64,000 bases of DNA from Candidatus Heimdallarchaeota archaeon (GTDB lineage: Archaea > Asgardarchaeota > Heimdallarchaeia > Hodarchaeales > Hodarchaeaceae), in assembly GCA_020353515.1 (NCBI GenBank), contig CP070695.1, forward strand, positions 3,488,050 through 3,552,049, written 5' to 3'. The notes under the pieces are model-generated. The model ran no database searches. It was given only the letters and a program-made list of their open reading frames with translations, and was not told the origin of the DNA. A program made the translations under genes and the position numbers. The first letter of the stretch is position 1; each line of letters opens with the position of its first letter. Below, in pieces: positions 1,022-34,904 of this stretch.

Positions 1022-2770
1022 TCAAATTATTTCTCCTTGAACAACTTTCTTTTCGTTTGGAGTAATAATATAAAGTGAAAAAACACCCTCATCTATACAT
1101 TTTTTTAATAATTGAATTTCCTTATGAATAGTGATAATTTGATTAAAATATTGAGAAATTTTTGCTTCTGAAGTTGAATCTAGAAGATTTTCACACCAAT
1201 CATTACCTTCTCTTAAATGTCTATAAAACCATCTAAAATTTTGAAATTTCATCTCTCGTGGATATTTAAATTTGATATTGTTATCCAGTAATAATTTGCT
1301 TATTTTATCCTTTAATTCTTCGCTTTTATCCTGAAACCTATGGTAAATCTTCCCCAAGGTAAATAATTTATCTATATCTGATTGAAATTCCATCTCTCTA
1401 ATAATTTTTTCATATTCATTGAATTGAAGAAGTTTGGACAATTTATTACGATATTCTATGCTCCCTGTATCAGAATCAGAGATTAGGGGAATTCGAATTA
1501 AACTAACGTAAGCTTTATCAAAATCCTTACTTGTTACAAATTGTTTTGTATAAACAGCATGACGTAGCCACCATTCAATAAATGACGATTGCAATAGACC
1601 AGCAATAGCATTTAAAGATAAAATTTCCTCTGAATAATTTGGAATGATATTGATTACCGTTTCAAATGTTAGAACGACTCCTTCCCGATCTACCCAAGTT
1701 TTTATGTCTAAAGAATGTTTTGGTTTCGTGTGGTATGAAATTATTCTCTGAGCAATAATTTTGGGGGTTTTCTGTCTCATAAATCTCTTTCTCGGGGTAT
1801 TCAGCTTTAAAAAACTACGAGGGGGTAATAAAAATCCTGGAGCTATATTTACTTTCTCTATTAGAGGATTAAATCCTTTTTCTACTCGATATTTGCTGGT
1901 TAATCCTCGGAAAGCGACCACATCTAAAAATTCATACTTATCACTGTAAAGACGATGAATAATCTTTAATTCTGGATCACTTACTCCCACCAGAAAGTTA
2001 TCTACCATTAAAGCCTCTGAATATGATATGGTACTCATCTGACCAAAATTTTTTTCAATTGGATTCCAAATTCCAGTTTGATATTCTTGATTTTTTGAAT
2101 CTACAATTCCTTTTTTTATAATTATTGCACATTGTTCTTGTAATTGACCAGAGAATTGATTCCCAAGATCAAGAACTTCAACTAACTGATATTCGGTTAA
2201 AAGAATTTTCCTAAACTCACTCCATCTTTTTGAATAAATAATAGGTTTTGGCAAGAGAAAACAGAGGATACCATCTGGTCTTAATAGATTAAGTGATTGT
2301 AATGTAAAAAATACTGAACTTTCAGAATAAATTAGAGAATTATTACCAAAATGGCAGTTTTTTCGAATTCGGATCCATTCGAGTTGTGAATAGAGAGCGT
2401 TATGAGGGGGATTACCAATAATTATATCGAAATTATTCGGTAAGTCTGAAGGAAAATTTAGAAGAAAATCACCCTGAAAAATCTTAATTTTGTAAGAAGC
2501 CTTTTCAACTAATTGAGTTAATTCCTTTTTAGCTATCTTAATCAGAGATGCATCGATGTCAATTCCGTAAAAATTTGTATTTGAAACAAATGAGGAAATC
2601 TGTGGAATCAATGTATAAAAAAAAACTCCCTTACCGATTGCTGGATCTAATACAGATATCTGTCTTGATTTGTTTTGGGGAATTAGATGTATAATTCGTT
2701 CTAAAATTGCTTGTACTAAGGTTTTAGGAGTAAAAAATTGTCCTTTTGATTTCCTTTGTAGATCTTGAAT
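1022..2770 (-). CDS. Gamma-class N6-adenine DNA methyltransferase (Eco57I/TaqI-like); true start lies upstream of the ORF-track call at 2611
   Basis: Frame is open upstream of 2611 and encodes RKSKGQFFTP (motif X) and VLDPAIGKGVF (motif I). Also YGIDID, GDFL, IIGNPPH (motif IV variant) and a TaqI-like C-terminal region. Start codon uncertain. Confidence 0.8.
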   Translation of the reverse strand: MQDLQRKSKGQFFTPKTLVQAILERIIHLIPQNKSRQISVLDPAIGKGVFFYTLIPQISSFVSNTNFYGIDIDASLIKIAKKELTQLVEKASYKIKIFQGDFLLNFPSDLPNNFDIIIGNPPHNALYSQLEWIRIRKNCHFGNNSLIYSESSVFFTLQSLNLLRPDGILCFLLPKPIIYSKRWSEFRKILLTEYQLVEVLDLGNQFSGQLQEQCAIIIKKGIVDSKNQEYQTGIWNPIEKNFGQMSTISYSEALMVDNFLVGVSDPELKIIHRLYSDKYEFLDVVAFRGLTSKYRVEKGFNPLIEKVNIAPGFLLPPRSFLKLNTPRKRFMRQKTPKIIAQRIISYHTKPKHSLDIKTWVDREGVVLTFETVINIIPNYSEEILSLNAIAGLLQSSFIEWWLRHAVYTKQFVTSKDFDKAYVSLIRIPLISDSDTGSIEYRNKLSKLLQFNEYEKIIREMEFQSDIDKLFTLGKIYHRFQDKSEELKDKISKLLLDNNIKFKYPREMKFQNFRWFYRHLREGNDWCENLLDSTSEAKISQYFNQIITIHKEIQLLKKCIDEGVFSLYIITPNEKKVVQGEII

Positions 2771-4895: not shown

Positions 4896-7484
4896 ATGAA
4901 CCAGTTATATTCTAGTTTGAAGCCATATTATGAAAAATTTCTTATCAGGGGTAAATCTTATGGATTATCCTCTCATGAAATTCATGAAATGGCGCTAAAC
5001 CTGTTTATAAAACTTCTGGGTGTTATTATTCTCATATCATGTAATGGTAAGACTGAGGAAAACGGGAACTCTTTGATCAATTTACAAAAAACTAGAAAGT
5101 CAATTCATGAAATCTTATTTCAAAATGATTTACTAACTTCACAACTATTCCCAAATGGAATTCCTCCTATTTTGAATGAATTGCTTGAATTATCTCATCA
5201 AGAGATCCAATTCAAGGATTCTTTATCACCTAAAGAATGGGATACACTCATCGAGCTACTGTTAAAGCAACAATGGACTTTTGCTGAAGATTTTGATGAT
5301 ATTGTGAAAGAAACTCCAAATTCTCCAGGATTTTTATCATATTTTTATGAAAATGTTCTAAATGATTTTGAGAATTTTTTTCGTTTAACTCCTAAAATTT
5401 CTAAAAGGAAACATAAAGGGGTCTTTTATACTCCATGGCGAATAATTCGTGAAATTACTGATAAATGTCTCGATCACCATGTTACAATTAACTCTCATTC
5501 AAAAACAACCAAGAAACTAAGTCTGAAAATATTGGATCCGAGTTGCGGGACTGGTTCTTTTCTTGTCTACACTGCTGAAAGTATTTTTCGACGTCTATGT
5601 AATAGGAAAGAATCGTACAAAATTCATCCACATATGATTGTAAATAGAAATATATATGGTATTGATCTTTCTCAAAGCAGTTTAACTGTTGCCAAATTCC
5701 GACTATTATTTTGGATCCTAAATTTAAATTTAAATTCTATTGATTCACTTCCCACATGGTTGTTTAGAAATATTTGTGTTGGTAACAGTCTATTTGGTCT
5801 TTATAAAGAAAGAATTCAATATCCTTTGGATTATTCAACAGCTTTGAAGCGAATTAATAGATTTCTAGATTTTAAAAAACAACAGGACTTGGTTTTGAAA
5901 GAGAATTGGCTAGAGACAAGTTTTCAGGTAAAAGAGGCAAGAAAAAAGCCTCATTTAAAGAATTCACACCAAAAAGCAATTCAGAGAGCAGAGAAAAATC
6001 TTCTGCGTCTTGTAAATACTTTTTATCAGAATTGGTTGAGAAAACGCCTATATAACTATCCACGTCCAGCACCAATAAAAATGAAAGATTTAGAAATAGT
6101 TACTCCATTCCATTGGAGCATAGCTTTTCCTGAAGTGGTTCTTAAAGGTGGGTTTGATGTAGTAATAGGAAATCCTCCCTATGGAAGGTCAATTCTTAAC
6201 AAAATTGAGAAATCCATGCTTAAATTAATATATAAAGCATGTTCAGGTAAGAATCCAAAAAAATATAGCCTAAATGCCGCTAGTGCTTTCATTGAAAGGT
6301 CAATTACTGTTTTAAAACAAAACGGAACACTTGGTTTGATTGTGCCTTTTTCCATTCTGCGAGTTGAGGAATTCGAAACACTTCGGGAATTCATGTTAGA
6401 AAGAACTATGATCTGGAAAATTAATGATGAATCAGCAGCGTTCGCTGATGTTACTCTGGAAATGTGTTCCATATTCTTGACTAAAAGAGTTGAATCTGAT
6501 TATGAAGTTTCCATAAGTCCTCGACCGAATATTCATGCAGAATCGGCCGTTCCGATTAGTATTTTTAAAAAATATAATCGTTTCATGATCTATTATAACA
6601 AGTTATGGGACAAAACTGTAGGTCAAGGATTAGTCCTAGATGGTGTTGTTAGTGGTGATTACGGAATTGATCATCGAATTCTAAAAAAAGATTTGAGTTC
6701 AGAATTTTCTGATAAATATCCAATATGTTATTTACACTCAGGACGGAGTGTTGCAAAATTCGCATTAAATCCTAAATATTTTCAATGGTCAAAACCTCAT
6801 CCTACAAATGAGAGATTTTCTATTTATTTTCGAGAACCTCGACTTGTTAACACTGCTATTGGTAATCGATTCCGGGTTGCTTATAAACCAGAAAAAATTG
6901 TACCTGGTACTAATGTTTCAATTCTAGAAATTAATCCTTCATACCACTATTTCCCCATGTTAATTTTATTAAACTCTGATCTCATTAATTATCTTTTAAA
7001 GAGATATATTCTCAATTTTAGTCATTTAACGGTTTACCTTCACAAATATTATACTAAATTGATTCCTATCAAGTATCCACATGATTTTGAACAAGAATTT
7101 TCAACACTTGCTAGTTATCTCCTTTTTCTGAATCAGGCATACCTTTGTGGAAAACTAGCTCAGGATAAGCGAACAGATTATTTACTTAATTTAGCGAATT
7201 ATTTAGTTTATGATTTGTATTTTCCAGAAATTTTAGGGATTTCATCAAATTTAGCTGTTAATGTGGGAAAATACTTGAAATCTATAGATATAGAGTCCTT
7301 TCTGGATCTGATACTTTTTCAGGAATCTGAAACCGATCGGGAACGCTTATCATTAGTCATTTCTTCCAATTGGCAGATTATACAAAAGGTTACTAATCAA
7401 TTACGAAGAGATGAAGAAATACGTAAGCACAAAAAGACAATATTTAACCACAAAATTGTAAGACGTATATCTAAAGAGCTCTAA
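4896..7484 (+). CDS. Large gamma-class N6-adenine DNA methyltransferase (Eco57I-like)
   Basis: KRKHKGVFYTP, ILDPSCGTGSFL, IYGIDL, FHW..FPEV..GGFDVVIGNPPY. Confidence 0.85.
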   Translation: MNQLYSSLKPYYEKFLIRGKSYGLSSHEIHEMALNLFIKLLGVIILISCNGKTEENGNSLINLQKTRKSIHEILFQNDLLTSQLFPNGIPPILNELLELSHQEIQFKDSLSPKEWDTLIELLLKQQWTFAEDFDDIVKETPNSPGFLSYFYENVLNDFENFFRLTPKISKRKHKGVFYTPWRIIREITDKCLDHHVTINSHSKTTKKLSLKILDPSCGTGSFLVYTAESIFRRLCNRKESYKIHPHMIVNRNIYGIDLSQSSLTVAKFRLLFWILNLNLNSIDSLPTWLFRNICVGNSLFGLYKERIQYPLDYSTALKRINRFLDFKKQQDLVLKENWLETSFQVKEARKKPHLKNSHQKAIQRAEKNLLRLVNTFYQNWLRKRLYNYPRPAPIKMKDLEIVTPFHWSIAFPEVVLKGGFDVVIGNPPYGRSILNKIEKSMLKLIYKACSGKNPKKYSLNAASAFIERSITVLKQNGTLGLIVPFSILRVEEFETLREFMLERTMIWKINDESAAFADVTLEMCSIFLTKRVESDYEVSISPRPNIHAESAVPISIFKKYNRFMIYYNKLWDKTVGQGLVLDGVVSGDYGIDHRILKKDLSSEFSDKYPICYLHSGRSVAKFALNPKYFQWSKPHPTNERFSIYFREPRLVNTAIGNRFRVAYKPEKIVPGTNVSILEINPSYHYFPMLILLNSDLINYLLKRYILNFSHLTVYLHKYYTKLIPIKYPHDFEQEFSTLASYLLFLNQAYLCGKLAQDKRTDYLLNLANYLVYDLYFPEILGISSNLAVNVGKYLKSIDIESFLDLILFQESETDRERLSLVISSNWQIIQKVTNQLRRDEEIRKHKKTIFNHKIVRRISKEL

Positions 7485-8750: not shown

Positions 8751-9854
8751 ATGATGGAAAATGTAACCAGAGTTTTCTTAATAGATGATTCAGCGATTGT
8801 ACGTCAACAGATCTCACAAATGATCATGAATAGTGAGAAAAATATCATAGTTGTAGGTACCGCAATGAATGGGCGAATAGCACTAGAAAAAATGATACTA
8901 CCAAGAAATAAAGCTGATGTTGTAATAATAGATGTTGTTATGCCTGAGATGGATGGAATAGAGACTATTAATCATATTATGGATCGGTTTCCCACTCCTG
9001 TTATTGTTATCTCTGCTTTGAAAAAGAAAAAGGAGATTGATGTTGCACTATCGGAACTTGGAGTAGCTGCTTTTGAATCTGGCACTGTAGAGTTTGTTAG
9101 AAAACCAGACCCTTGGATTCCTAATGATAAAGAACGATTTAAAAATGAATTAATCCTTAAGATTGAAAACCTAGCAAAAATTGATTTCTTAAAAATTTTC
9201 TCAATTTTCAACATAGAATCCTTAGTAAAAGAAGAAGCGATAGCAAAACCTTTAATAAAGGAACCTTCACAAGTCATTTTAAATAGACATCGTGCTAAGA
9301 TAATCGTTATTGGAGCTTCGACGGGGGGTCCTCGTGCAATTTCGATGATATTTTCTATGTTACCCAATAATTTCCCTCCAATTCTTGTTATTCAACATAT
9401 GCCAATAGGTATGGTTAAACCGTGGGTAACCAGATTGAAAAAGATGTACTCAAATTTAATGATTGAAGTCGCGAATAATGGAGTATTACTAAGACCAAAT
9501 CATATTTATATCGCTCCTTCGGGAAAACACTGTCTAGTTAATCACAATAAAAGAATAAAACTTGAATCTGGAGAAAAAGTGAATTTTGTTATTCCTTCAG
9601 CTGATGTCACCTTTAAATCAGTTGCAGAAGTTTTTGGGAAGGATTCACTTGGGATTATACTTACAGGTATGGGGCAAGATGGCTGTCGAGGAGCACGTAT
9701 TATCAAAGATTCAGGTGGCAAAATAATAGCTGAGGATGAATCCACTAGTATAATTCCTTCAATGCCAAAGGCTGTAATTGAAGGGGAGCTTGCAGATAGA
9801 ATTTCACCTTTGCACAAAATCCCAACATCAATCAGAGGATTAGGTTGGATCTAA
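8751..9854 (+). CDS. cheB: Chemotaxis methylesterase CheB (receiver + esterase), copy 1
   Basis: LIDDS / IDVVMPEMDG receiver; GASTGGP, QHMP and LTGMGQDG catalytic motifs. Confidence 0.93.
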   Translation: MMENVTRVFLIDDSAIVRQQISQMIMNSEKNIIVVGTAMNGRIALEKMILPRNKADVVIIDVVMPEMDGIETINHIMDRFPTPVIVISALKKKKEIDVALSELGVAAFESGTVEFVRKPDPWIPNDKERFKNELILKIENLAKIDFLKIFSIFNIESLVKEEAIAKPLIKEPSQVILNRHRAKIIVIGASTGGPRAISMIFSMLPNNFPPILVIQHMPIGMVKPWVTRLKKMYSNLMIEVANNGVLLRPNHIYIAPSGKHCLVNHNKRIKLESGEKVNFVIPSADVTFKSVAEVFGKDSLGIILTGMGQDGCRGARIIKDSGGKIIAEDESTSIIPSMPKAVIEGELADRISPLHKIPTSIRGLGWI

Positions 9855-9869
9855 GTGGAATTTTTTCTT

Positions 9870-11054
9870 CTAATTTTTTCGTTGGTATATCCTATTGTGA
9901 GCATTAATGACTTCAAACTTATCTTTAACTTCCGAAGGAAGGAGCTCACACTTCCCAAGCACTAGGAATCCACGGGTTTTTAGAACGGAATGAAATCGTT
10001 GAAAAAGTGAAATACTTTGAGGTTTTGAAAAATATATCAGAACATTTCTACACATAATTAAATCGAAATCTTTAGCTGGAGGAGGAGTTCGGAGATCATG
10101 TCTTTTAAAGGTTACTAAGTTTTTAATTTGAGGAGATAGTTCATACTCATCTTGATTTATAAGTCTAAAGAAATTTCGAATTACTGATGGATTCATTTCA
10201 TCGAAATAATCTTTTGTGTACTGTGCTTCTTTAGCTTGCGATAAAAAATCTTGTGAAATATCCGTCGCAAGAATGTGAATATTTTTCTCCTTTGATTTCC
10301 TGTTTTGCTTTTTAATCATGATAGCAATACTATAAGGTTCTGGACCGATAGCACAACCCGCACTCCAAATCCGAACTTTTTTAGTTCTATTCAAAATATG
10401 AGGTAGAATTTCATTCTCTAGAACATCAAAAAGTTCTTTGTCGCGAAAAAATCGAGTTACGTTGACTGATAAACAATCAACAAGTACATTAAGTTCATTT
10501 GGATTATGCTCTAAAAATTTCCGATAATCAAAATAAGATGGTGTTTTTACCTTCCTCATGCGAAAATGCAATCGTCTTAGAAAATAGTTTTCTTTATATG
10601 CTTGATAATTAATTTTCTTCTTTGAAAGGAAATCCATTACCAATGGAAGATGTTGTTGGTCAGTAGGGTCTTTAACCTTAAAAATTACTTGTATTTTTTT
10701 CAGATCTATCCTTTTACGTCTTTTTTTCTTTTTTTCTTTTTCTGAAGTCACATTAACGAAGTTATTAAGGCTTTTTCTTTGTCTTTTAGGATGTAAAGGT
10801 GAAAGGTGGTGTTTATGTTCCCCCTCCAACATTGAAAATAATTTTTCAGAGGATTCCTGATTCTTTTCGACGTGTTCAAGTAGTTCAGTATAGCTCTTAA
10901 AACCCAGTTCTCTTTTCAACCGTAACAGTCTTTTCTTGATTTTTCCCTCATCCCAAAGCGCATCACCAGTGTTTTGCATAACGAATTTGATAAGATCCTC
11001 GAATCCTTCATCTGATTCTAAACTTATCTGGAACTTCTTATAATCGTTTTGCAT
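9870..11054 (-). CDS. cheR: Chemotaxis methyltransferase CheR with extra N-terminal domain
   Basis: VNVTRFFRD, RIWSAGCAIGPEPYSIA, ATDIS, FDLIMCRNVLIYF. Confidence 0.93.
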   Translation of the reverse strand: MQNDYKKFQISLESDEGFEDLIKFVMQNTGDALWDEGKIKKRLLRLKRELGFKSYTELLEHVEKNQESSEKLFSMLEGEHKHHLSPLHPKRQRKSLNNFVNVTSEKEKKKKRRKRIDLKKIQVIFKVKDPTDQQHLPLVMDFLSKKKINYQAYKENYFLRRLHFRMRKVKTPSYFDYRKFLEHNPNELNVLVDCLSVNVTRFFRDKELFDVLENEILPHILNRTKKVRIWSAGCAIGPEPYSIAIMIKKQNRKSKEKNIHILATDISQDFLSQAKEAQYTKDYFDEMNPSVIRNFFRLINQDEYELSPQIKNLVTFKRHDLRTPPPAKDFDLIMCRNVLIYFSKPQSISLFQRFHSVLKTRGFLVLGKCELLPSEVKDKFEVINAHNRIYQRKN

Positions 11055-11210
11055 TATGTCATTTCCTTGGCTTCTTGATTTCTTAGAGATTTACTCTGAA
11101 GTACATCCAAAAACCGGATTTAAACACTACTAAAAAAAAAATTGAAGTAGGAAAAATAATATAATGGCTTAGACCAGTCTTTTTTTTAAATTTCAACTCA
11201 TTTAAGGCCT

Positions 11211-11864
11211 TTATATTATTGAGCTTTCTTCACCAAACAGAGATTTCATGAATTCTTCAAATGTCTCTAAGTGGGGGACAATAGCTAAATCTACAGCGAT
11301 ATTTCTCTCAGAAGTAAATACATCACATTCGATAAACAAGACTGATTTCACATTCTTTCGAATATCATCTAATTCATGTTCGGCACAAGATACCAAGGTA
11401 CCAATACGAAGTTTAGGCGGTGAGGGGAAAGAATTCGCTTTTAGAAAATAATTTAGAGCTTCAATATATTTTAATGAGAGTATAGAACCAGTCTCTTTGA
11501 TTAATGAGCGAAATAATGGAGGTAATCCTCTAATATCGTGAATCTCGTCTGTTTGTTGAGAAGTCATTAGATCTATAATTTTTTTAACGCTTTCCCAGTC
11601 AAAAAAGACTAAGATGGTGTATAATAGATCACTAACAGTAACAGAAGATATTATTGCTAATTCTTGATCGATTGGCATTCCTATAATCCCAGGGATATCT
11701 TGTAATTGTTTTAGAGCTACTTTAGGAATACTCATATATGTTGACCGATTTAGAAATTGAGTCAGGGCAATTGCTGCGTGCCCTGCGCCTATGTTTCCAA
11801 CTTCTTGAAGAGCATCAAGGTGAAAATCTGATAATTTCTCCATTTGAAAATCTGTATCATGCAT
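11211..11864 (-). CDS. cheC: CheY-P phosphatase CheC
   Basis: DALQEVGNIGAGHAAIAL...MSIP; second repeat SLIKETGSIL; overlaps the cheA stop by 8 nt. Confidence 0.9.
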   Translation of the reverse strand: MHDTDFQMEKLSDFHLDALQEVGNIGAGHAAIALTQFLNRSTYMSIPKVALKQLQDIPGIIGMPIDQELAIISSVTVSDLLYTILVFFDWESVKKIIDLMTSQQTDEIHDIRGLPPLFRSLIKETGSILSLKYIEALNYFLKANSFPSPPKLRIGTLVSCAEHELDDIRKNVKSVLFIECDVFTSERNIAVDLAIVPHLETFEEFMKSLFGEESSII

Positions 11865-13746
11865 GTACTTTTGCCTCCAAGAAATTCATTGGATCGATTA
11901 TTAACACTACTTTGCCTCCTTCTAACACGGTTGCACTTGAGAACGCGCCTATTTGGCTGAGGAAGTTTTGAATGGGTTTCATAACTACTTCACGTTCTCC
12001 CAATAATTCATTTACTAGGAATCCTAAACTACGATTCCCTTTTCGCCATAGAACCACTATTTCTTTCTGTACATCTTTATGACCAGTTTCAATTTCAGAC
12101 TCAATTTGTAATGAATGAAACTTCAAACGTTCACGTAAGTCAATGATAGGAACTGATGTGTTATCAACAATAATGGATTTTGAGGTGGTTTCTGGATCAA
12201 TTAGAATTTTACGAACTGGAACAGAAAGGATTTGTTCAATATTGGCCATAGGGATTGCAAATTGATACTTTTTAACTGATAACATCAATACTTTTGTAAT
12301 AGCTACTGATAATGGTATAACGAGTCGGAAGGAGGTAAATTTTCCTGGTTCCGAATCAACCTCAATATTTCCACCAACAGACTCCATAGTGGATTTTACA
12401 ACACTGAGTCCAACTCCTCTACCAGAAATTTCAGTCGTTTCTTCTGCAGTTGTGAAACTACTGTCAAATAATAGTGAATGTAAATCGTTTTTTGTCAATA
12501 TAGCTCCTGGAATAACTAATCCTTTCTTTTCTGCTTTTTCACGAATTTTCTCATAATCAATTCCACGACCATTGTCTCGCACTTCGATGATTATATCAGA
12601 ACGTTCATGAGTCACTGTAAGCTTTATCATTCCCATTGGTTCCTTATTCTTTTTGACTCTTTCTTCAGGTATTTCTATCCCATGACTGAGTGCATTTCTA
12701 AGCAAATGGTTAAGTGGATCAACTAGTTTCTCAATCACTGAGCGATCAACTCCAATATTTCTCCCAGTAACAATGAAATCGACATGTTTTCCTTCTTTTT
12801 GGCTTAAATCACGAATCATTCGTGGGTAGCGTGTGAGTATTGTCTCTAAAGGAACCAAACGCATTCTTATAACGAGGTCTTGGATGTTAGCTATTGTTCT
12901 TTCAAAGTTAGATAAGTTCTCCTTAAATGACCTAGAGTAGGCTTGTTGCTCCCCAATCTCTCTGATGAATTGACCAGAAACCACCAGATCACCTAATAAC
13001 CTTATAATGTGATCCAAGTCTTCAAGATTGACTCTGACAGTTAGTGCTTCTTGAGATTCTTCTATCCCTCCAGATTTTTCAGTAGTTGTAACTGATTCTA
13101 AAATACGTGATACATTGACAGAAACAACATCAGGCGCTTCTTCGACGATCTGATTAATAACCTCTTCATCTTCTTGTGTAGTTATCTCAATAATTAATTC
13201 TTTAAATGAAGCTCCTGCTTCAATTTCTTCAAGGGGAGGTATAGTACTATTTACACTTGACTTTTCCTGGAGCTTTTTGACAAGAACTAGACTCCTAGCA
13301 CTGACTACTTTACAATCTGGACTGTAAAAAACCCTAATTTGAAGTTTACTCCCCAAATTTATCATGAATTCATCAATCGAAGCCATTTGCTGGGTCAATT
13401 CATCAAAGTGGAGAGCTTCGGGAGTTTTCCCACCTTTTAAGGATTTAGAAAATCTCTCTAGTTCATCGACATATGTAAACAACAGTTTTAATACGTTTGA
13501 AATATTTGTTTCCTCTGCATCAGTAACAAGATTTTCCATACTATGAGTAAGCGAACTAATCTTCGGATATCCTGATAAAGAGAAAAGACCCTTAAGATTA
13601 TGAAGCACTCTAAGTATAACTTCATATGCTTCTTTCTTTGTTGGATCCTTTTCAAGAACCAACAAACCTGAATTCAATTCCTCGATTCTTTCTGTTAGTT
13701 CGAGGATCATGACTTTTTTGAATTCTTCTGATTCAAATTCACTCAA
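11857..13746 (-). CDS. cheA: Chemotaxis histidine kinase CheA (P1-P5)
   Basis: Hpt LHNLKG, P2-like segment, TVRV..LD, MRLVP, HLLRNALSHGIE, DNGRG, SGRGVGL, C-terminal CheW-like P5. Confidence 0.95.
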   Translation of the reverse strand: MSEFESEEFKKVMILELTERIEELNSGLLVLEKDPTKKEAYEVILRVLHNLKGLFSLSGYPKISSLTHSMENLVTDAEETNISNVLKLLFTYVDELERFSKSLKGGKTPEALHFDELTQQMASIDEFMINLGSKLQIRVFYSPDCKVVSARSLVLVKKLQEKSSVNSTIPPLEEIEAGASFKELIIEITTQEDEEVINQIVEEAPDVVSVNVSRILESVTTTEKSGGIEESQEALTVRVNLEDLDHIIRLLGDLVVSGQFIREIGEQQAYSRSFKENLSNFERTIANIQDLVIRMRLVPLETILTRYPRMIRDLSQKEGKHVDFIVTGRNIGVDRSVIEKLVDPLNHLLRNALSHGIEIPEERVKKNKEPMGMIKLTVTHERSDIIIEVRDNGRGIDYEKIREKAEKKGLVIPGAILTKNDLHSLLFDSSFTTAEETTEISGRGVGLSVVKSTMESVGGNIEVDSEPGKFTSFRLVIPLSVAITKVLMLSVKKYQFAIPMANIEQILSVPVRKILIDPETTSKSIIVDNTSVPIIDLRERLKFHSLQIESEIETGHKDVQKEIVVLWRKGNRSLGFLVNELLGEREVVMKPIQNFLSQIGAFSSATVLEGGKVVLIIDPMNFLEAKVHA

Positions 13747-13809
13747 TTATTCCACGACCTCATTCAAAAAATCTACTGGTCAATAAATGCTGGGAAATTC
13801 CCAGAATAC

Positions 13810-14169
13810 CTAATTTAGCGCTCCTTCAATTGCTTGGACTAATTGGTCAACTTTGAATGGTTTAATAACAAAGTCCTTTGCACCAATTTTCAAAGCTTGT
13901 CGGACAAGGGGTTCATGTCCTAGCGCAGTTACTATTACGATTCTTGCCTCTGGATCCATTTCCATGATTTCTTTGACAGCCATTAACCCATTCATCTTTG
14001 GCATAACAACGTCCATTGTCACGACATTTGGCATGAATTGCTTGTAATGGTCAATAGCTTCGATCCCTGTTTCTGCCTCTGCAACAACTGTATGACCGTG
14101 CTTTTTCAGTATTTTTCGAATCATCAACCGTAGATATTTCGAATCATCTACAATCAATACTTTTGCCAT
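13810..14169 (-). CDS. cheY: Chemotaxis response regulator CheY
   Basis: VLIVDDS, TMDVVMP, VTA, FVIKPF; single receiver domain adjacent to cheA. Confidence 0.93.
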   Translation of the reverse strand: MAKVLIVDDSKYLRLMIRKILKKHGHTVVAEAETGIEAIDHYKQFMPNVVTMDVVMPKMNGLMAVKEIMEMDPEARIVIVTALGHEPLVRQALKIGAKDFVIKPFKVDQLVQAIEGALN

Positions 14170-14175
14170 AGTTAT

Positions 14176-17100
14176 TCAATCCTTTTCTTTTCTTTGTTCT
14201 TTTTTCATCCTTTTTAGTAGTGTTTTAATATTCTTTTTTGATATTATCTCTTCTAGAAACTCATTTTCAATAACATGTATTGTAGATAAGATTTTTTCGT
14301 AAGAAAATACATGTTTACAAGTTTTTTTACCCTCCAAAAAGATATTTGAGTCCTCACAAGGAATTAACTCTTCTTTGAACTTTGTTATTACACCTTCGAT
14401 ATCATCTGCAGGAACTAAGAATGAGAGATTCTCAAACTCTAGTAAAAAGAGAAAGCTGTTGTCTTGATACTCTGTCTGATTCTGAGAGTTAAAGACTAAC
14501 GCTGATAAATCAATGACAGGAAGTGTGCTATTGTTTTCCTCAGCAATACCGATTATTGGAAAAAACGTAGTATCTATCTTTTTCCAATTTAATGAACTTA
14601 AAACTCTTCTAACGAAAGTAACGTCAATTGAGAGGGTATAATGTTGTAATTTAAAAACAAAATAGTCTAAACGAATACCTTCGTGCCTATAGAATAACAG
14701 TAATTCGAGATCTTTGCGCTTAGATTTAACTTCCTCAAGAAATTTAACCTCTTTAGGAAGAAGGGTTGAAGAAAATTCTTTTGTATCTTTTAATGATAAT
14801 GTATTCTGAAGAACTGCTCTAATTTTCATATATAGAGAATCTGGATTCATTATCATACCAAGTGCACCGTTGTATGAAAAAAATCCAGAAATGATTGGTG
14901 AAAGGGTATTTCTTGAAAGCCCTAAACTGTTTTGGTAGATTTCACAATTTTCAATTGTAATTTTATCCAAAATGTTATCGACTAGGAGAACAGCTTCTGT
15001 ATTACTCTTAGGGTCATTTATTAGAATTCCAACTGATTTTTTCGCATTGTTACCATTCTTTTCTCTTAAAATAGTGTTGAAATCAATAAGTGGAACAATA
15101 TTAGTATGTATAGTTGCCCCTTTGATTGCATCATGGGGAAACTCTTTGAATAAAAAGGAGTTCTCCTCAATGACTTGGATAACATTTTGGGAATTTAGCA
15201 AGAAGATATGTCCTTTATCCTCAAATAAGTATCCTTCTTGTATTATATCATAACTTTGATGGATGGATTCTTGAACAGGATTCTTGAAGTATAGGATCTG
15301 GTCACTTTCTTGTTCTAATAAAATAGGATTATTAGCTATATGGAATAGATATTCAGCATTTAATATCAAAATAATCTGTTCTGATGGAGTAAGCATTAAA
15401 CCTTGTATGATATGGAGTGGAAAATCTCCCTCAGCCGATGAAAGGATAGGTCGAAGAGAATTCTCATCGATTTCGATTATTGATAGAATTTTATCGGTAA
15501 AGAGAGCGATATGTTGATCTTTAACCTCAAGGATCAGAACCTCATTTGAAGTCAGAGGTGTGGGTGTTGAATTCGATTTTAGTACCTCAGCTAAATTCAG
15601 GACAGAGATCACGCTTCCCCTGTAATTTGTTGATCCAATAATTGCTTTAGGCGCGTTAGGTACCTTTGTAGTGCTAGTAATATTGAAGATCTCACTAATA
15701 TATATGTTTGGAACCAAGATGTTTAAATTTCCAACTGAAACCAGTGTTCCTTTGTGTTTAAGATTGTGAGAAGAACTTACAACTTGTTTTGGTTTTAATT
15801 CTATAATTGACCTCTGAACTGGGATATTTTGTTTGAGATTAATATTTAATTCTTCAGAAGTGTCAAGTGACTTAAATGGAACTAAAAGAGTCTGATTTTC
15901 CACAGTAAATTGGGTTTGCATTTGTTCAAGTTCATAAACGATCCGATTGAGAATTTCTTGGTGGTCAAGCTGGACTACTATTTGATCATTGTATAGAAAT
16001 GCACCTGGAAAAAATGAGACTTCATTAGTATTTGTCGAATTGACTAAACTAGTTAATTCTGATTCTTCAGGTTTACTGATGGATCCTAAGACCGACTCAA
16101 CCTGAAAAATTATAAACTTCCCCTTATTCTCCCCTACAATGTAATTTTTCGGCTTTTGGATCTGTTTCGTTGTTGAACTCAATAGTTCACCATAGAAGAA
16201 AGAGTGCAAATCGATAACTGGAACAATTTCGCCACGAAAAGTGGTAGAACCCACGAAATAAGGAGCACTATTAGCGATTGGTGTGATTGTCAATGTTTGT
16301 AGGATCTCGATCACACAAGAGCACTTTATCGCATAAATGATATCCAATAATGTGATTAACACAAGAGCATTTTCATCCAAAGATGATTGCTTAATAGCTC
16401 TCGACTTCAAGATGTCTTCAGCATTGTAGATAGTAAAGAAGATTACTGGTTTTTCATAGTTAATTACAGAAAGATCAGAAATAGCCTGAAAAAAATAGTT
16501 GACATTTAAGACTAATATAATGTTTCCTGAGCGGTCTAACATGACCCCTTGGAAATAATACGTGAGATCCTTCTCTTTCGTAGGCCCAACAGCAGGATGT
16601 AGATCAGTTTCGATCATTTCTACTATTTCATGGAACTCATCAACAATGATGGCAACCTGTTGGTCTATGGATTCAAGAATGATTGCTTGAACATCATCTT
16701 GTTTTCTTACTATTTTCTTCCTTTCACTAGAGGAAGGTACTAATATTTCAGTAAGATCTAAAACACTAATGACTTTACCACGGAAATTAATTGTACCTAC
16801 AACAGCTTTTGGTGCATTTGGTACCTTGGTAACGCTTTGAACATTAAAAATCTCTATTATACGATTGTTTGGGATTAGTATGTCTAGTTCCTGAACCGAA
16901 ACCAATGTTGCAGTATTTGTGGTTTTTTTGGTATCCTTCAAGGCTCTTTGGAAACCTCTATCTGTCGCACTTGGTACTGGTACAGAAAGTTTTTGACGGA
17001 GATCGATATTATATTCTTCAGGAACCCCTAGTAGCTCAATGGGAACTAAGAGAGCTTGGTTTTCAATCACAAACTGAGTTTGTGTATTCTCAAGGTCGTA

Positions 17101-17628
17101 AACAACTCGCTCTAGGATTTGGTTATCGTCTAATAAGACAATAATCTGATCTATATTAGAAAGAAATGCCTTAACAAAATAAGAATTCTCTTCCGGATTA
17201 GCAAAATTCACTAAATTTGTTACTTCTGATTCTTCAGGTTTCTTTATAGAACCTAGAACAGTTTCAACCTGAAAAATAACAATTTTCCCCGTATGTTCTA
17301 GTGCAATGTAATTATTTTGATTTTCGGAACGTCTTGTTGACAAATTTAGTAATCCCCCATAAAAGAAGGACTGTAAATCAATGACTGGAACAATCTCACC
17401 ACGAAAAGTAGTAGAACCAACAAAATAGGGAACACTATTAGCCACTGGTGTGATTGGTAGTGTTTGAAGGATTTGGATTACAGATGAACTAAAAAGTGCA
17501 TAGTTGTTATCAAGTAAGGTGAAAAGGAGGAGATTATCTTCTTGTTGATTCCTTGAAGTTTTCTTGATTTTTTTTGTTTTTAAAATTATCTTCACCCCTT
17601 TGTGATATTTTCCTTCTATACTACTCAT
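14176..17628 (-). CDS. cheW: Multi-domain CheW protein (six CheW-like domains)
   Basis: Repeats of the CheW core: FVGSTTFRGEIVPVIDL (x2), VPNAPKA..G..N(F/Y)RG.VISVL.L (x2), plus two divergent copies (IKGATIHTNIVPLIDF; IIGIAEENNSTLPVIDL). Confidence 0.85.
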   Translation of the reverse strand: MSSIEGKYHKGVKIILKTKKIKKTSRNQQEDNLLLFTLLDNNYALFSSSVIQILQTLPITPVANSVPYFVGSTTFRGEIVPVIDLQSFFYGGLLNLSTRRSENQNNYIALEHTGKIVIFQVETVLGSIKKPEESEVTNLVNFANPEENSYFVKAFLSNIDQIIVLLDDNQILERVVYDLENTQTQFVIENQALLVPIELLGVPEEYNIDLRQKLSVPVPSATDRGFQRALKDTKKTTNTATLVSVQELDILIPNNRIIEIFNVQSVTKVPNAPKAVVGTINFRGKVISVLDLTEILVPSSSERKKIVRKQDDVQAIILESIDQQVAIIVDEFHEIVEMIETDLHPAVGPTKEKDLTYYFQGVMLDRSGNIILVLNVNYFFQAISDLSVINYEKPVIFFTIYNAEDILKSRAIKQSSLDENALVLITLLDIIYAIKCSCVIEILQTLTITPIANSAPYFVGSTTFRGEIVPVIDLHSFFYGELLSSTTKQIQKPKNYIVGENKGKFIIFQVESVLGSISKPEESELTSLVNSTNTNEVSFFPGAFLYNDQIVVQLDHQEILNRIVYELEQMQTQFTVENQTLLVPFKSLDTSEELNINLKQNIPVQRSIIELKPKQVVSSSHNLKHKGTLVSVGNLNILVPNIYISEIFNITSTTKVPNAPKAIIGSTNYRGSVISVLNLAEVLKSNSTPTPLTSNEVLILEVKDQHIALFTDKILSIIEIDENSLRPILSSAEGDFPLHIIQGLMLTPSEQIILILNAEYLFHIANNPILLEQESDQILYFKNPVQESIHQSYDIIQEGYLFEDKGHIFLLNSQNVIQVIEENSFLFKEFPHDAIKGATIHTNIVPLIDFNTILREKNGNNAKKSVGILINDPKSNTEAVLLVDNILDKITIENCEIYQNSLGLSRNTLSPIISGFFSYNGALGMIMNPDSLYMKIRAVLQNTLSLKDTKEFSSTLLPKEVKFLEEVKSKRKDLELLLFYRHEGIRLDYFVFKLQHYTLSIDVTFVRRVLSSLNWKKIDTTFFPIIGIAEENNSTLPVIDLSALVFNSQNQTEYQDNSFLFLLEFENLSFLVPADDIEGVITKFKEELIPCEDSNIFLEGKKTCKHVFSYEKILSTIHVIENEFLEEIISKKNIKTLLKRMKKEQRKEKD

Positions 17629-17646
17629 GGGTTTCTTTATCTATTC

Positions 17647-18549
17647 TTATTCATTCTCTTCGCTTTTGTTTCCTTTTTTGGATTTCTTGGTCACTTTAGC
17701 CTTTTCTGTCCCTTTTGTTTCCTCTTTTCCTTTTGATTTATCCCCTTCTCTGGAATCTTTTTCGATTTTGGCCTCATCTTTCTTTTTAGTTAACTTTTTG
17801 GTCTTTTTTACTTTCTTTGTTTCAGAATTGTCTTTTGATAAGTTTTCATCACCTCCCTTGGTATCAGCATCAACCTTATTAAGAAGCCTTTGATCAAATT
17901 CATCAGTTTGAAGATTATCTGGTAGATTTAGTTGATCCATATCAAAATTGGCTGATTTATCTGATGAGGATTTCTCTGATGCTTCATCGGGATCAGGTAA
18001 GGTGTATTGATCAAAATCAAAATCGAAATCTTCATCACTAGTCATTTTTCTTCCCGAAGTTTTTGAAGTAACAAAATCTCCTAAGAGTCCCTCTAAATCT
18101 AAAATGAAAATAGTCTGCCCATTTTTTAGTAATCCAATTTTAGAAACTAGAGATGGATTTAACAATTCTTTTCCTTGGAAATATGAATTATTTGCTGATT
18201 TAAATTCTGTAATTGTATCTAATTGATGGATCTGATCTACTAAAATACCAATATCTTGGTCTTTAATTGTTACCAATAAAATAACATTAGAATTAGTATT
18301 ACTTGATATTTCATCCTTTTCACGAGAGTCTTTTCCCCAAAGGAGTACAGAGAGGTTAAATATACTAACAATATATCCACGTAGATTAACGATTCCTTCC
18401 AAGACTGAGGAAGTTCTAGGCAGCTTCAAAATATTCCTAGTTTGGAATACTTCCTTAAGATAATGTACTTCAATGCCATAAAGATCATTAGAAATTCGAA
18501 ATATAAGATGTCTATTTTTCACTTTTTCAGCTTGCATTACTGTTGTCAT
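17647..18549 (-). CDS. cheW: CheW with long acidic/Lys-rich low-complexity C-terminal tail
   Basis: LIFRI...YGIEV..LKEV, LEGIVNLRGYIVSIFNL, IGILVD, ILDLE; ~140-aa charged tail. Confidence 0.9.
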   Translation of the reverse strand: MTTVMQAEKVKNRHLIFRISNDLYGIEVHYLKEVFQTRNILKLPRTSSVLEGIVNLRGYIVSIFNLSVLLWGKDSREKDEISSNTNSNVILLVTIKDQDIGILVDQIHQLDTITEFKSANNSYFQGKELLNPSLVSKIGLLKNGQTIFILDLEGLLGDFVTSKTSGRKMTSDEDFDFDFDQYTLPDPDEASEKSSSDKSANFDMDQLNLPDNLQTDEFDQRLLNKVDADTKGGDENLSKDNSETKKVKKTKKLTKKKDEAKIEKDSREGDKSKGKEETKGTEKAKVTKKSKKGNKSEENE

Positions 18550-18557
18550 TCCTTAAA

Positions 18558-19301
18558 TCACCTTTTTGTATCAGTAAATCTTGAAAAGATAGAAAAGAAA
18601 TTCCTTAACTCAGTTGATTTTTCTTTTTTGATCTCCTGAGTAGTTCCTGAATATTCTGACTTGAGATATGTCGAGTCGGTTTCTTCCATGGCAAAAAGCT
18701 CCTTTTCAACCATCGCGTCTAGATCTATATCTTCCTCTTCTTCGTATTCATAAAATTGGGTTGTTGTTTCTAAAACAACGTTATCTATAATCTGGCCTAA
18801 TTCAGGGAAAATTGACATGTTTGGCCCATCCAAAGTTTTGTCACTAACAACGATATTAACCGAATCGAGAGGAGAATTAGACTCATACACAGGTACCGAG
18901 AGCATCATATGAATGGTTTCAAATATACGAGAAGAAAGTTCATTTACAATCTCAACAGATTTCATTGATGTTACACTGTCTAGGGGAAAATTACCAATTG
19001 TCAACAAGCAGGCTAAGTCTTTCTGACTTCTAACGAATATTCTGGTGCCTTCCCGTGTGCCAATATCATTTAACTCCATATTATTTCCTATCATTTCTCC
19101 AAATTGAACAATAGCGGCCATCAAACCAGCAATCAGTGTTGGATCTTTACCAGAAGTCTTTTTATAAACCCTGGAGAAAATAGGAAGACCACTACTCTTA
19201 TTTAGAAGTAAAATTTCATGTACAGATACCTTGACGTCCGCTTCCTCCGTTTGCTTATCATTTACATCCCCAAGTAATTTTTCGGCTGATATTTTTTTCA
19301 C
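18558..19301 (-). CDS. Longin-like domain protein (Asgard type), first gene of the che operon
   Basis: ILLLNKSSGLPIFSRVY...DPTLIAGLMAAIVQFGEMI matches the Asgard longin/profilin-like-fold pattern (beta-SGLP-beta, D..LI.G...AI..F); 8 nt from cheW. Confidence 0.65.
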   Translation of the reverse strand: MKKISAEKLLGDVNDKQTEEADVKVSVHEILLLNKSSGLPIFSRVYKKTSGKDPTLIAGLMAAIVQFGEMIGNNMELNDIGTREGTRIFVRSQKDLACLLTIGNFPLDSVTSMKSVEIVNELSSRIFETIHMMLSVPVYESNSPLDSVNIVVSDKTLDGPNMSIFPELGQIIDNVVLETTTQFYEYEEEEDIDLDAMVEKELFAMEETDSTYLKSEYSGTTQEIKKEKSTELRNFFSIFSRFTDTKR

Positions 19302-19706: not shown

Positions 19707-20801
19707 TTAAATCCAACCATGTTTGTGAATTAATATCGGGATTTTATGTAATGGTATGATTTCATCAGCATATTTTCCTTCGATAATCGCTTTTGGCATG
19801 GATGGAATAACACAGGTAGATTCATGCTCAGCAAATATTTTTCCCCCGACAGACTTAATCTTCTCTGCACCTAAAAATCCATCTTTTCCCATCCCAGTAA
19901 GAACAATACCAAGAACATTTTTTTTATATACCCTAGCAGCATCAACAAAAGTAACATCAATAGCAGGTATGACAAAATTTATCCTTTCATCAATGAATAG
20001 ACGAAAGGTCTTATCTCTATTAATACCACAATGTTTTCCACCAGGGGCTATATAGACACGATTTGGTAAGATTTTTTCTTTATTATTTGGAATTTTGATA
20101 ATAAGATGAGGATATAAACTCTGTAATCTTTTCACCCAAGGATCTACCATTTGTTCTGGCATATGTTGTACTACTATAATTGGTGGAGATTTGACTGGAA
20201 TTTTTGAAAGTATTAACGAAATTGCACGAGGACCCCCCGTCGAAGCTCCTATTACTAATAATAAATCACTAAATTGTTCTGATATTACTTCAGACTTTGC
20301 TTCTACAGTAGGTTTTGTTTCTTCTTCTTGTAAAAAAGTTTTGAAATCAAAACCTGCATAGGCACGAGCTAAATCTATTTGAGAAAGGTTAGAAATTTTG
20401 TAGAATAATTCTCTTTTAAACCGATTAACATCATTTAGAACCATTGGATCTGGTTTTTTAACAAATTCTACTCCACCAGACTCAAAAACTGACATACCTA
20501 TGTTAGAAAGAGAACGATTCACTTCTCTTTTTGATAGGCCAGAAATCATGATTACTGGAGTAGGAAATCGATCCATAATGTGCTTAATGGTCTCGAAACC
20601 GTCCATTTCAGGCATTATAGCATCAACAAGTACAACATCAGGGGAATATTTGGGTAAAGCCATTTTCATTAAAGCTATTTTACCATTTGGAGCTCCCCCG
20701 ATGACTTCTATGTTTCTTTGACTATCAATGATCATTTTGGTTATTTGATGTCTAATAACTGCTGAATCATCGATTAAAAAGACCTTTATTACTCCTTTCA
20801 T
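19707..20801 (-). CDS. cheB: Chemotaxis methylesterase CheB, copy 2
   Basis: LIDDS, VDAIMPEMDG, GASTGGP, QHMP, LTGMGKDG. Confidence 0.93.
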   Translation of the reverse strand: MKGVIKVFLIDDSAVIRHQITKMIIDSQRNIEVIGGAPNGKIALMKMALPKYSPDVVLVDAIMPEMDGFETIKHIMDRFPTPVIMISGLSKREVNRSLSNIGMSVFESGGVEFVKKPDPMVLNDVNRFKRELFYKISNLSQIDLARAYAGFDFKTFLQEEETKPTVEAKSEVISEQFSDLLLVIGASTGGPRAISLILSKIPVKSPPIIVVQHMPEQMVDPWVKRLQSLYPHLIIKIPNNKEKILPNRVYIAPGGKHCGINRDKTFRLFIDERINFVIPAIDVTFVDAARVYKKNVLGIVLTGMGKDGFLGAEKIKSVGGKIFAEHESTCVIPSMPKAIIEGKYADEIIPLHKIPILIHKHGWI

Positions 20802-21717: not shown

Positions 21718-24078
21718 CTATTTTTTTCTAGTTTTTTCTTTTGCAAATCGCCAATATAATTCGAACTGTAAAATTTCGTGAATTTTTGTTACATCTCTAG
21801 AGTTCATTCCTAGACACTCTATAAGAACAAGATGATCAAGTTGGTTCACAAATTTTGAATAATCTGAAATTAATTTTTTTGTTGTAAGGATTGATTCTAT
21901 TTTTGTTTCTTTATGACTAGAAATACAAGCTTGAAATTGATTAATATGGTTTTTAGAAAGTTTTCTGGGATTTAATACCAGTAAATTTTGACATTCTTGC
22001 AGGGAGAGTTTAAGCGACCCAAGTCCGAGGGTTCTTGTACCCTGTATTTCCCTAAGTAATATCCCTAGAGTTGAATTTAAGAAACCAAGAAGAGGAAATA
22101 ACCAATCCTTGTTGTTTGCCCAAAAACCAATCCATTGCTTATCAATATGGAGTTCATCAGAATTATAGATAACAAAAGATCGTTTAAAACTCATATTCGG
22201 TATTAATATCTCTGGTTGTATTAATGGTACCTGATACCAATTCTCCTTTGTTCTATTCTTAAAATATGGACGTTTTAATATGTCATCCTGATTTTTATTG
22301 ATATAATCTTGTAGTTCATTTGGACTATCTTCTGTAAGTTTTCTAGGAATGTGAAGGAAATATCCTAATTCTTTGGATGGAGAGAAGATTGTACCCCATT
22401 CTTTAGGGGATTTTGTCATAAGATATAGGTTCTCTTTTGGAAAGTTAAATTGCTTCTTCAATTTCTTGGTAAAGTAAAAAAACCGATTAGCTCCCGTGGT
22501 TGATCCCATTTCTAGCTTTCCAAGATCTTTTAACAAACAAAATTGATCTTTTTTATCTTTTAGTAGTTTTATAAGATAAGAAGACATTGTAAGATAATCT
22601 AATCTTAAAAAAGGAAAAAGTTTCCTTGAATTCATCATTAAAGGAGTTAAATCAGAAATTAGAGAAATTCTATATAAATCAGTTTCCTTTGTTTGTATCT
22701 CAAATCGGATATTAGCAGGCTTAAAAGAAAGCTTTTCTAAATCCTTTGTGAAATTATGTATCCCAAACTGTAATAAAGACTTTAGAGAGTTTTTCCATAC
22801 AATTATGGTTGTATTTTTAAGTTCAGCTTTTTTATGAATCCTGTGTCCGATAACAATATGAGTTCGAATTTCTGCATTATCCCAAACTTCAAACGGTAAC
22901 TCTAAAATGAGATCTAAACAAAAAGATGTTAGAAAGATTTGTTTAAGTGGATTTGTATATCGAGAAGACAACCAAGCTCGAGATAAGACAAATGCGATTG
23001 TACCTCCTCCAACAACTTGCGTAATAGCTTTTAACCAAAAATAGATATATAAGTCTGCTTTTTTATCCCATTTGAGTGATATTTCTGAAAATAAATATTT
23101 GAAAAACTTTGAAATATCCTTTGTAGTTTTAATAGAAGTATTTTTAATTCCATGATGTCGAACATAAGGAGGATTTCCAATTATAATGTGAAATTTGTGA
23201 TGAGAGGATTTATCATCACTAAGAAAATCAGTTTCGAAGATTTGGAATTTTTTGATTAAAGAATTCAGTTTTTTTTCTGAAAATGTCTCGTTTGGAATAT
23301 ATTTCAGATATTGGTGTAGGAGTATAATCTTAGCACACTTGACAATACGAGAGTCAATATCATATCCATAAAGGCGTGAGAATAAAGTATTCATAATTTC
23401 TATCTTTTCTTCTGGTGATATATTAACATTTATTGGATTAGCAAGTATAATGGATAATAGGAGTCTACTCATTTCTGCAAGAAACATTCCTGTTCCACAG
23501 CTTGGATCTAAAATCCTAATACTCGCTATTCTATCAACAATTTGATAATTATCTATGAACTGATAATTTACAGGATATTTACCTCTAAAACTGAGTTCGT
23601 GAAGAGATTTATCATCTAGAGCAATATCCTTTCTGTTACTGAGAAATGAAAACAAAGCATAACGACATATTACCTTAATTTGATTCAAGGGAGTAAAAAA
23701 TATTCCAGATTTTTTTCGTTCATTTGGTTTTCTCAGATTTTCATGAAAATTTGAAAAGATATAAGGCTCAAGATGGTTCTTGTCGTCCTCAATTCTCTTT
23801 AAAAAAATCCACCACCAATCATCCTGATTTAAATAGCTTAGAAATGATTCATTCATTCGAAACTCAAAATAATGTTTAAGCCATTTTATTTCCCAATAAT
23901 TTGATCTTTTAGCTAACTGGACTAGATAAGTTTCTTTGTCTACGAAAAGGAACTGATTTAAACTTGGAAACAGAAATAAAATACTAAATGTTAGGCTGAA
24001 AAAGTTATATAACTCTGGCCATTTATGAGATTCTTTTGTTATATGCTTTAAACATTTAGTCCACTCATTCACTATCAT
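21718..24078 (-). CDS. Gamma-class N6-adenine DNA methyltransferase (Eco57I-like)
   Basis: RKKSGIFFTP, ILDPSCGTGMFL, YGYDID, IIGNPPYVR, ADLYIYF. Confidence 0.85.
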   Translation of the reverse strand: MIVNEWTKCLKHITKESHKWPELYNFFSLTFSILFLFPSLNQFLFVDKETYLVQLAKRSNYWEIKWLKHYFEFRMNESFLSYLNQDDWWWIFLKRIEDDKNHLEPYIFSNFHENLRKPNERKKSGIFFTPLNQIKVICRYALFSFLSNRKDIALDDKSLHELSFRGKYPVNYQFIDNYQIVDRIASIRILDPSCGTGMFLAEMSRLLLSIILANPINVNISPEEKIEIMNTLFSRLYGYDIDSRIVKCAKIILLHQYLKYIPNETFSEKKLNSLIKKFQIFETDFLSDDKSSHHKFHIIIGNPPYVRHHGIKNTSIKTTKDISKFFKYLFSEISLKWDKKADLYIYFWLKAITQVVGGGTIAFVLSRAWLSSRYTNPLKQIFLTSFCLDLILELPFEVWDNAEIRTHIVIGHRIHKKAELKNTTIIVWKNSLKSLLQFGIHNFTKDLEKLSFKPANIRFEIQTKETDLYRISLISDLTPLMMNSRKLFPFLRLDYLTMSSYLIKLLKDKKDQFCLLKDLGKLEMGSTTGANRFFYFTKKLKKQFNFPKENLYLMTKSPKEWGTIFSPSKELGYFLHIPRKLTEDSPNELQDYINKNQDDILKRPYFKNRTKENWYQVPLIQPEILIPNMSFKRSFVIYNSDELHIDKQWIGFWANNKDWLFPLLGFLNSTLGILLREIQGTRTLGLGSLKLSLQECQNLLVLNPRKLSKNHINQFQACISSHKETKIESILTTKKLISDYSKFVNQLDHLVLIECLGMNSRDVTKIHEILQFELYWRFAKEKTRKK

Positions 24079-34514: not shown

Positions 34515-34904
34515 ATGCTAGAAGACGACGCTGAGATCATGGATCGTTTGCAGCAAATTGAACGAATACTTCGGGAGGTTCAAAGCAGAATTCCTGATCT
34601 TGAAGGATTAGCAGTAGTTACTAGAGATGGCCTCCCAATTGCTAGTGCACTCTACACCAACACTGATGAAGATCGAATTTCTGCTATGACTGCAGCAAGT
34701 CTTTCTCTTTCTGAACGTGTTGTATTAGAATTAGAGAGGGGAATAATGGAACAACTAATCATAACAGGCTCAAATGGCCTCGTAATAATTCGTGATGCTG
34801 GTGAGCATGCAGTTTTAGTAGGGATTGCACGAGTTGATGCAAAATTAGGATTAGTTTTACTTGACATGAAAAGAGCTGCTAAGAAACTTTCTTCAATGAT
34901 CTAA
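34515..34904 (+). CDS. Roadblock/LC7 (MglB-like) protein
   Basis: AVVTRDGLPIAS, DRISAMTAA.LSL.ER...EL.RG.MEQ.II.G.NG, LGLV.LD. Confidence 0.92.
   Translation: MLEDDAEIMDRLQQIERILREVQSRIPDLEGLAVVTRDGLPIASALYTNTDEDRISAMTAASLSLSERVVLELERGIMEQLIITGSNGLVIIRDAGEHAVLVGIARVDAKLGLVLLDMKRAAKKLSSMI

Follow-up and report, generated by a model that had tools for sequence, protein, structure and literature searches.

The longin-fold protein encoded at the head of a chemosensory (Che) operon in a Candidatus Heimdallarchaeota archaeon of the order Hodarchaeales is very probably a dedicated accessory of Heimdallarchaeial Che systems, a reading to which we give a probability of about 0.85 on the grounds of how its gene is inherited and what it lies next to. 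The operon was studied in a 64,000-nucleotide stretch of contig CP070695.1 (positions 3,488,050 to 3,552,049; hereafter the window), which belongs to a genome assembled as a single contig of 4.94 Mb (96% complete; G000 below). The first-pass annotation of the window had proposed a Che pathway rewired through a longin, and the neighbourhood survey bears out the linkage on which this idea depends: it is conserved in relatives well above chance and beyond the genus. Within the genus, an ortholog of the longin gene was found in 11 of the 12 CheA-positive genomes and in none of the 10 CheA-negative ones; the contig of the remaining CheA-positive genome breaks just upstream, inside the multi-CheW gene. 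At nine loci, spread over eight genomes, the ortholog immediately precedes cheW; it is separated from cheW by an inserted cheB in one case and is detached in two. A second longin gene, which follows cheR in G005-G007, served as a control and was rejected as Che-specific, since it occurs also in the CheA-negative genomes G001, G003 and G021. In one Hodarchaeales bin (G007; L028 and L031) the full che operon is present twice, both times with a longin gene, owing either to duplication or to a mixed bin.

The family as a whole follows the same pattern. Its profile, searched against 400 Asgard genomes, scored at least 109 bits in 25 genomes and at most 69 bits in all others. All 25 belong to Heimdallarchaeia, where the family is present in 24 of the 30 CheA-positive genomes as against 1 of the 53 CheA-negative ones, this single carrier being 63% complete and having a gene for a methyl-accepting chemotaxis protein (MCP) next to the longin gene. 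Outside the genus, 16 of the 17 copies lie no more than three genes from an MCP gene, cheR or cheD, compared with a base rate of 0.7% of genes measured in G000, which may be a few times higher in receptor-richer genomes. All three held-out copies, absent from profile building (G070, G077 and G078), are directly divergent from an MCP gene. A profile search blind to gene context (1.84 billion proteins) yielded two closest full-length distant matches (E-values 6e-21 and 4e-17), both of which abut cheR; the six weaker matches that were looked up lie between cheA and cheD (one), divergent from an MCP gene (two) or on short contigs without che genes (three). In a quick tree, one clade (support of 81 in the Shimodaira-Hasegawa-like approximate likelihood ratio test) unites 23 of the 24 longins encoded next to che genes and excludes all 37 other longins of G000. 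Between families the gene arrangement takes at least five different forms, and che neighbours are kept in all of them. The longin thus forms a distinct subfamily, confined to Heimdallarchaeia and nearly always found beside che genes.

These distributions bear on the alternative that the protein is a passenger, i.e. one of many Asgard longins, linked to and merely co-regulated with the che genes while serving membranes or trafficking. G000 has about 38 longin-like genes (near che genes lie the studied one and one beside an MCP fragment, and no others), so that a chance linkage could have arisen once, and several relatives have the gene away from the operon, while a sister Che clade described below lacks it. 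Against this, the longin is lost wherever CheA is lost, it keeps che neighbours through rearrangement, and the control longin behaves in neither way; we regard a passenger role as improbable.

The assignment of the longin fold, made at first pass from the letters of the window, is weak by sequence and is borne out by structure. The Pfam family Fuz_longin_1 (PF19036) matches the protein below threshold (E-value 0.059; 14 bits, where the cut-off is 26.1), a search of PDB sequences with the family profile gave no significant match, NCBIfam has no matching family, and the ESM Atlas, searched by features and shape, returned unnamed Asgard clusters and one weak roadblock/longin cluster, none of them decisive. 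Two AlphaFold2 models (mean predicted local distance difference test scores of 58 and 67, with core strands and helices mostly at 66-92 in the better one) exhibit a five-stranded sheet in the order β-β-α-β-β-β-α-α, without the N-terminal helix of roadblock proteins. The VIA structure comparison identified the longins of CPLANE, TRAPP, Mon1-Ccz1, sedlin and VAMP7 as the best matches (Z-scores 11-13), among them CPLANE (7q3d_C, Z 13.4, root-mean-square deviation 2.8, 128 residues aligned), sedlin (2j3w_A, Z 13.1) and TRAPP (3cue_A, Z 12.9), with longin complexes down to 11.9, whereas roadblock proteins reached at most 8.5. The protein is thus a longin-fold member that stands outside the PF19036 family. 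It shares fold and topology with eukaryotic longins (sedlin/TRAPPC2, TRAPPC4, CPLANE, Mon1-Ccz1, VAMP7, Sec22 and AP sigma/mu; Z 10-13, root-mean-square deviation about 3 Å over 120-135 residues), but differs from them in its low identity (3-17%), in having an acidic linker, a conserved motif and an amphipathic tail in addition, and in its location among prokaryotic che genes. The longin fold occupies residues ~22-186, interrupted ahead of helix 3 by an acidic insert, and is followed by an acidic stretch, a conserved acidic motif (~200-220) and a basic amphipathic C-terminal helix (~230-242). The hydrophobic moment of this tail (0.81) lies in the top 2.3% of proteome tails, and the helix may bind a membrane or a partner.

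The seven open reading frames of the operon all lie on the minus strand, and the order longin-cheW-hexa-cheW-cheY-cheA-cheC-cheR given at first pass was recovered, with re-measured gaps of 8, 18, 6, 63, -8 and 156 nt. Pfam likewise assigns CheW, six CheW domains, a receiver, a five-domain CheA, CheC and CheR to these frames. The original gene list was correct for the seven and overlooked two flanking cheB genes. In window coordinates, the features are:

8751..9854, plus strand: cheB1, receiver and methylesterase, convergent with cheR
9870..11054, minus strand: cheR, N-terminal helical domain duplicated
11211..11864, minus strand: cheC, one D-x3-E-x2-N site intact, second site altered
11857..13746, minus strand: cheA, Hpt-P2-dimer-HATPase-CheW, H49 and N/G boxes intact
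13810..14169, minus strand: cheY, phosphoacceptor D53, T81 and K103 intact
14176..17628, minus strand: multi-CheW gene, 1150 aa, six CheW domains (Pfam)
17647..18549, minus strand: cheW, 300 aa, CheW domain 14-157 and a long charged low-complexity tail
18558..18564 (approximate span), minus strand: Shine-Dalgarno sequence AGGTGAT, overlapping the longin stop upstream of cheW and pairing with the 16S rRNA 3' end
18558..19301, minus strand: longin gene, 247 aa, characterized by AlphaFold2 topology, structural matches, conservation and hydrophobic moment
19707..20801, minus strand: cheB2, 55% identical to cheB1, 405 nt upstream of the longin gene

The Shine-Dalgarno sequence reported over the longin stop does complement the 3' end of the 16S rRNA of G000, where GGTGA precedes only 5% of long genes, and its position agrees with translational coupling of longin and cheW, short of proving it. 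A scan of the locus with a sigma-70 promoter and terminator model, which is unsuited to archaea, stayed at chance level. The cheB2 gene holds the same position in most relatives, and cheA is the sole copy in G000. With the catalytic motifs of CheB intact, as are the phospho-His and the phosphoacceptor Asp of the operon, these genes, as judged from their catalytic residues, form the core of a complete and apparently working Hodarchaeales chemosensory pathway. The number of CheW repeats in the multi-CheW protein varies among relatives (3, 4, 5 or 6), with six in the subclade of G000 and in family f4. Three genes for Eco57I-like N6-adenine DNA methyltransferases flank the che cluster (window 1022-2611, 4896-7484 and 21718-24078), two of which hold the same place in several relatives, and a stand-alone Roadblock/LC7 gene lies 15 kb from the operon (window 34515-34904).

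It is correct, as was noted at first pass, that the window contains no recognizable gene for an MCP, CheD, CheF or archaellin. The missing receptor, taken at first as a special feature, is a local matter: elsewhere in G000 there are genes for two full MCPs and for two fragments of MCPs, as well as a cheC-cheD pair apart from the operon and two further cheR genes, which rules out a receptor-less system. One relative has a single run cheB-MCP-longin-cheW-multiCheW-cheY-cheA-cheC-cheD-cheR, so that the receptor-less window reflects dispersal of genes, and in G014 the longin gene is immediately preceded by an MCP gene with a full extracellular domain; that no receptor gene lies in the window therefore carries no weight. 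The cheD gene lies at 1215263-1215808 in G000 and inside the che operon in relatives. In the cheC-cheD pair (L147:1070-2309; G000 1214569-1215808) both CheC sites are without the catalytic Asn and CheD is apparently intact, while the orphan CheR genes (G000 4197823-4199388 and 3564864-3565880) encode one protein with three N-terminal helical repeats and one ending in two C2H2-like zinc fingers. Both full MCPs (L150:1120-3042 and L149:5181-6359) are short in the signalling domain, with methylation motifs on both arms and 103-108 residues from tip to C-terminus, i.e. about 28 heptads by a length estimate rather than a class-specific hidden Markov model; one of them possesses four membrane helices but lacks a sensor domain.

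On the output side, the reported lack of CheF and archaellum genes extends to all of G000. CheF (PF04283) was found neither there nor in any of the 24 genomes of the order, in searches whose positive controls worked and which a very divergent CheF could have escaped; searches of G000 with PF01917 and PF04659 found neither archaellin nor ArlCDE, and archaellin was found in no Hodarchaeales genome. CheF occurs in 1 of the 400 Asgard genomes as against 82 with CheA, and is thus missing across the phylum from nearly all Asgard chemotaxis systems, although CheF or ArlCDE homologs have been reported for some Asgard genomes (PMC13705601). The sole type IV filament locus of G000 (L148; 1420603-1428506) comprises genes for an ATPase and several pilin-like proteins as well as two short platform genes. 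Its ATPase reaches 431 bits, short of the 550 required for FlaI, and is found in nearly all genomes of the order, CheA-positive and CheA-negative alike; the locus looks like a simple pilus, and an archaellum was rejected.

In the euryarchaeal F1-type system (Halobacterium and Haloferax, with a Bacillus- or Thermotoga-like core), phosphorylated CheY signals via CheF to ArlCDE, and typical archaeal receptors have 44 heptads. G000 resembles this system in possessing CheA with a P2 domain, CheW, CheY, CheB, CheR, CheC and CheD with intact catalytic residues; its CheA has the F1-type architecture Hpt-P2-dimer-HATPase-CheW, and the auxiliaries CheC and CheD are both present. It differs in the shorter receptors (about 28 heptads by length estimate), in that CheF, ArlCDE and archaellin were not found, and in having a multi-domain CheW (3 to 6 domains across relatives), two CheB and an operon-encoded longin. 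The Asgard che sets described earlier (27 of 97 Loki and Heimdall metagenome-assembled genomes, as well as the set of L. ossiferum, with putative arrays seen; PMC9834061) likewise comprise cheA/B/C/D/R/W/Y and MCPs, and the part of that report consulted names no accessory or output protein.

The commonest neighbours of the longin family are a receptor gene or genes for CheR, CheD, CheW and CheB. These four proteins act on receptors. The MCPs encoded beside the longin in families f5 and f6 possess two closely spaced membrane helices, with no room for an extracellular sensor. The prevalence of receptors and receptor-acting proteins among the neighbours, together with these sensor-less receptors in two families, favours a role on the side of the receptor array, where the longin may, at somewhat less than even odds, act as a membrane-tethered adaptor. 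The C-terminal amphipathic helix would tether it as a peripheral membrane protein, and the longin domain or the conserved acidic tail would bind a receptor or a receptor-bound protein (CheW, CheR or CheD), thereby assembling, positioning or tuning the array. Kariarchaeaceae-type MCPs adjoining the longin (L112, L114, L133, L134, L136, L139 and L164) share an acidic-aromatic YFW[ED]D-like motif, located in a cytoplasmic extension at the N-terminus that precedes two adjacent membrane helices; this motif is a candidate longin-binding peptide. Complex predictions combining the longin with CheW, CheY and a dimer of the cytoplasmic part of an MCP scored 0.15 and 0.11 against a mark of 0.32 and speak neither for nor against such contacts.

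The longin fold is profilin-like, as are PAS and GAF domains. The protein could therefore be a cytoplasmic sensing or adaptation partner, which gives input to receptors devoid of a ligand-binding domain or regulates CheD or CheR as CheC does. The f5 and f6 receptors and the sensor-less four-helix MCP of G000 would suit such a role, at one locus the longin stands where cheC normally does, flanked by cheA and cheD, in f5 it comes after cheD, and Asgard longin domains fused to two-component domains have been described (10.1101/2020.10.19.343400). On the other hand, the MCP adjacent to the longin in G014 has its extracellular domain in full, and no CheC-type E-x2-N motif is conserved in the longin family; we consider this role hardly probable.

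Several points weigh against the reading of the longin as a dedicated accessory and against its placement at the array. The sister clade of the Hodarchaeales CheA (G033, G036, G037 and G045; families f3 and f4; CheA 52-62% identical) has the same operon and no detectable family member, which makes the longin dispensable in close relatives. In G012, G016 and on two further contigs the longin gene lies apart from the operon. Clade support in the tree is low and family membership was partly set by similarity to the query; the genomes are kin, so that the counts may represent perhaps four or five independent lineages. In distant members the amphipathicity of the tail is modest (mean 0.60 compared with 0.53 in other longins). 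Finally, gene adjacency alone names no partner, and CheF too lies among che genes in euryarchaea.

Unrelated longins also occur near che genes. In the sister genome G037, a longin-winged-helix gene (L054:12168-13409) is divergent from the operon MCP gene. Besides a fusion of CheW to CheC and several genes of unknown kind, che operons of the Loki type (L069, L071, L083, L084, L086 and L087) contain, 5' of cheW, a gene for a longin with two domains; the operon of L071 ends in a roadblock-Ras GTPase gene. Unlike the Heimdallarchaeia family, this longin has two domains; it scores far below the family in the profile and falls outside it in the tree (low support, no formal test), and was rejected as an ortholog. 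Since it differs and the sister clade is without the family, longins came to lie beside che genes at least twice or have diverged beyond recognition.

The first-pass annotation had left open whether the longin is an input or anchor for the array or an output adaptor. Gene context favours the former, and the suggested tie to small GTPases finds no gene linkage in Hodarchaeales. As an output adaptor, the longin would bind phosphorylated CheY and relay the signal to a small GTPase and on to actin-driven protrusions, in place of CheF, as a platform for guanine nucleotide exchange or GTPase activation and perhaps as a heterodimer with a second longin. In Myxococcus, the Frz chemosensory system controls the GTPase MglA and the roadblock protein MglB, an analogous case of Che signalling by way of a roadblock/longin-like protein together with a small GTPase. 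MglB is described in PMC10933270; the studied protein differs from it in being closer to longins (Z 13 against 8) and in having no GTPase gene linked at its locus. The scarcity of CheF and archaellum genes argues for an output of this kind, as do the 58 Ras-like genes of G000, the TRAPP, Mon1-Ccz1 and CPLANE proteins among the top fold matches, the role of longin dimers as small-GTPase platforms (PMC10933270), the actin-dependent protrusions by which a cultured Hodarchaeales archaeon crawls (PMC13716822), and the Loki-type operons with their own longin 5' of cheW, of which the one in G273 also ends in a roadblock-Ras gene. The second longin (352 aa; L146:1297-2355, G000 3295296-3296354) lies, apart from its place after cheR in three genomes, directly beside the studied ortholog in G012, G016 and L043 and is a possible heterodimer partner; its C-terminal part is weakly receiver-like (hhalign probability 1.4%, E-value 0.036). 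Yet this match is weak and the second longin is shared with CheA-negative genomes, the nearest Ras-like gene lies 218 kb from the operon at a mean spacing of 85 kb, outside the genus the longin follows receptors and cheR rather than cheY or cheA, and some longins function without GTPases (PMC10933270). Moreover, the closest sister Che systems lack both the family and CheF, so that their output takes another route and the longin is no obligate CheF substitute. A CheF-like output to GTPases is therefore unlikely and fits less well than the array-side role, and it is rather doubtful that the family as a whole couples the Heimdallarchaeia chemoreceptor and CheY system to small GTPases and actin protrusions for chemotactic crawling.

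A literature search, made largely without subscription journals, brought up no description of a longin as part of a che operon, and the protein is probably a new accessory part of the Asgard chemotaxis pathway. CheA occurs in about one fifth of the Asgard genomes searched, CheF in almost none. Among dozens of longins per genome, one small family stands out as sharing the inheritance of the che genes in several Heimdallarchaeial families. If it is an accessory of the array, which is the modest reading, it would add to chemotaxis a new component whose fold is a eukaryotic signature; if instead it couples the pathway to GTPases and actin, it would imply chemotactic crawling in the closest relatives of eukaryotes.

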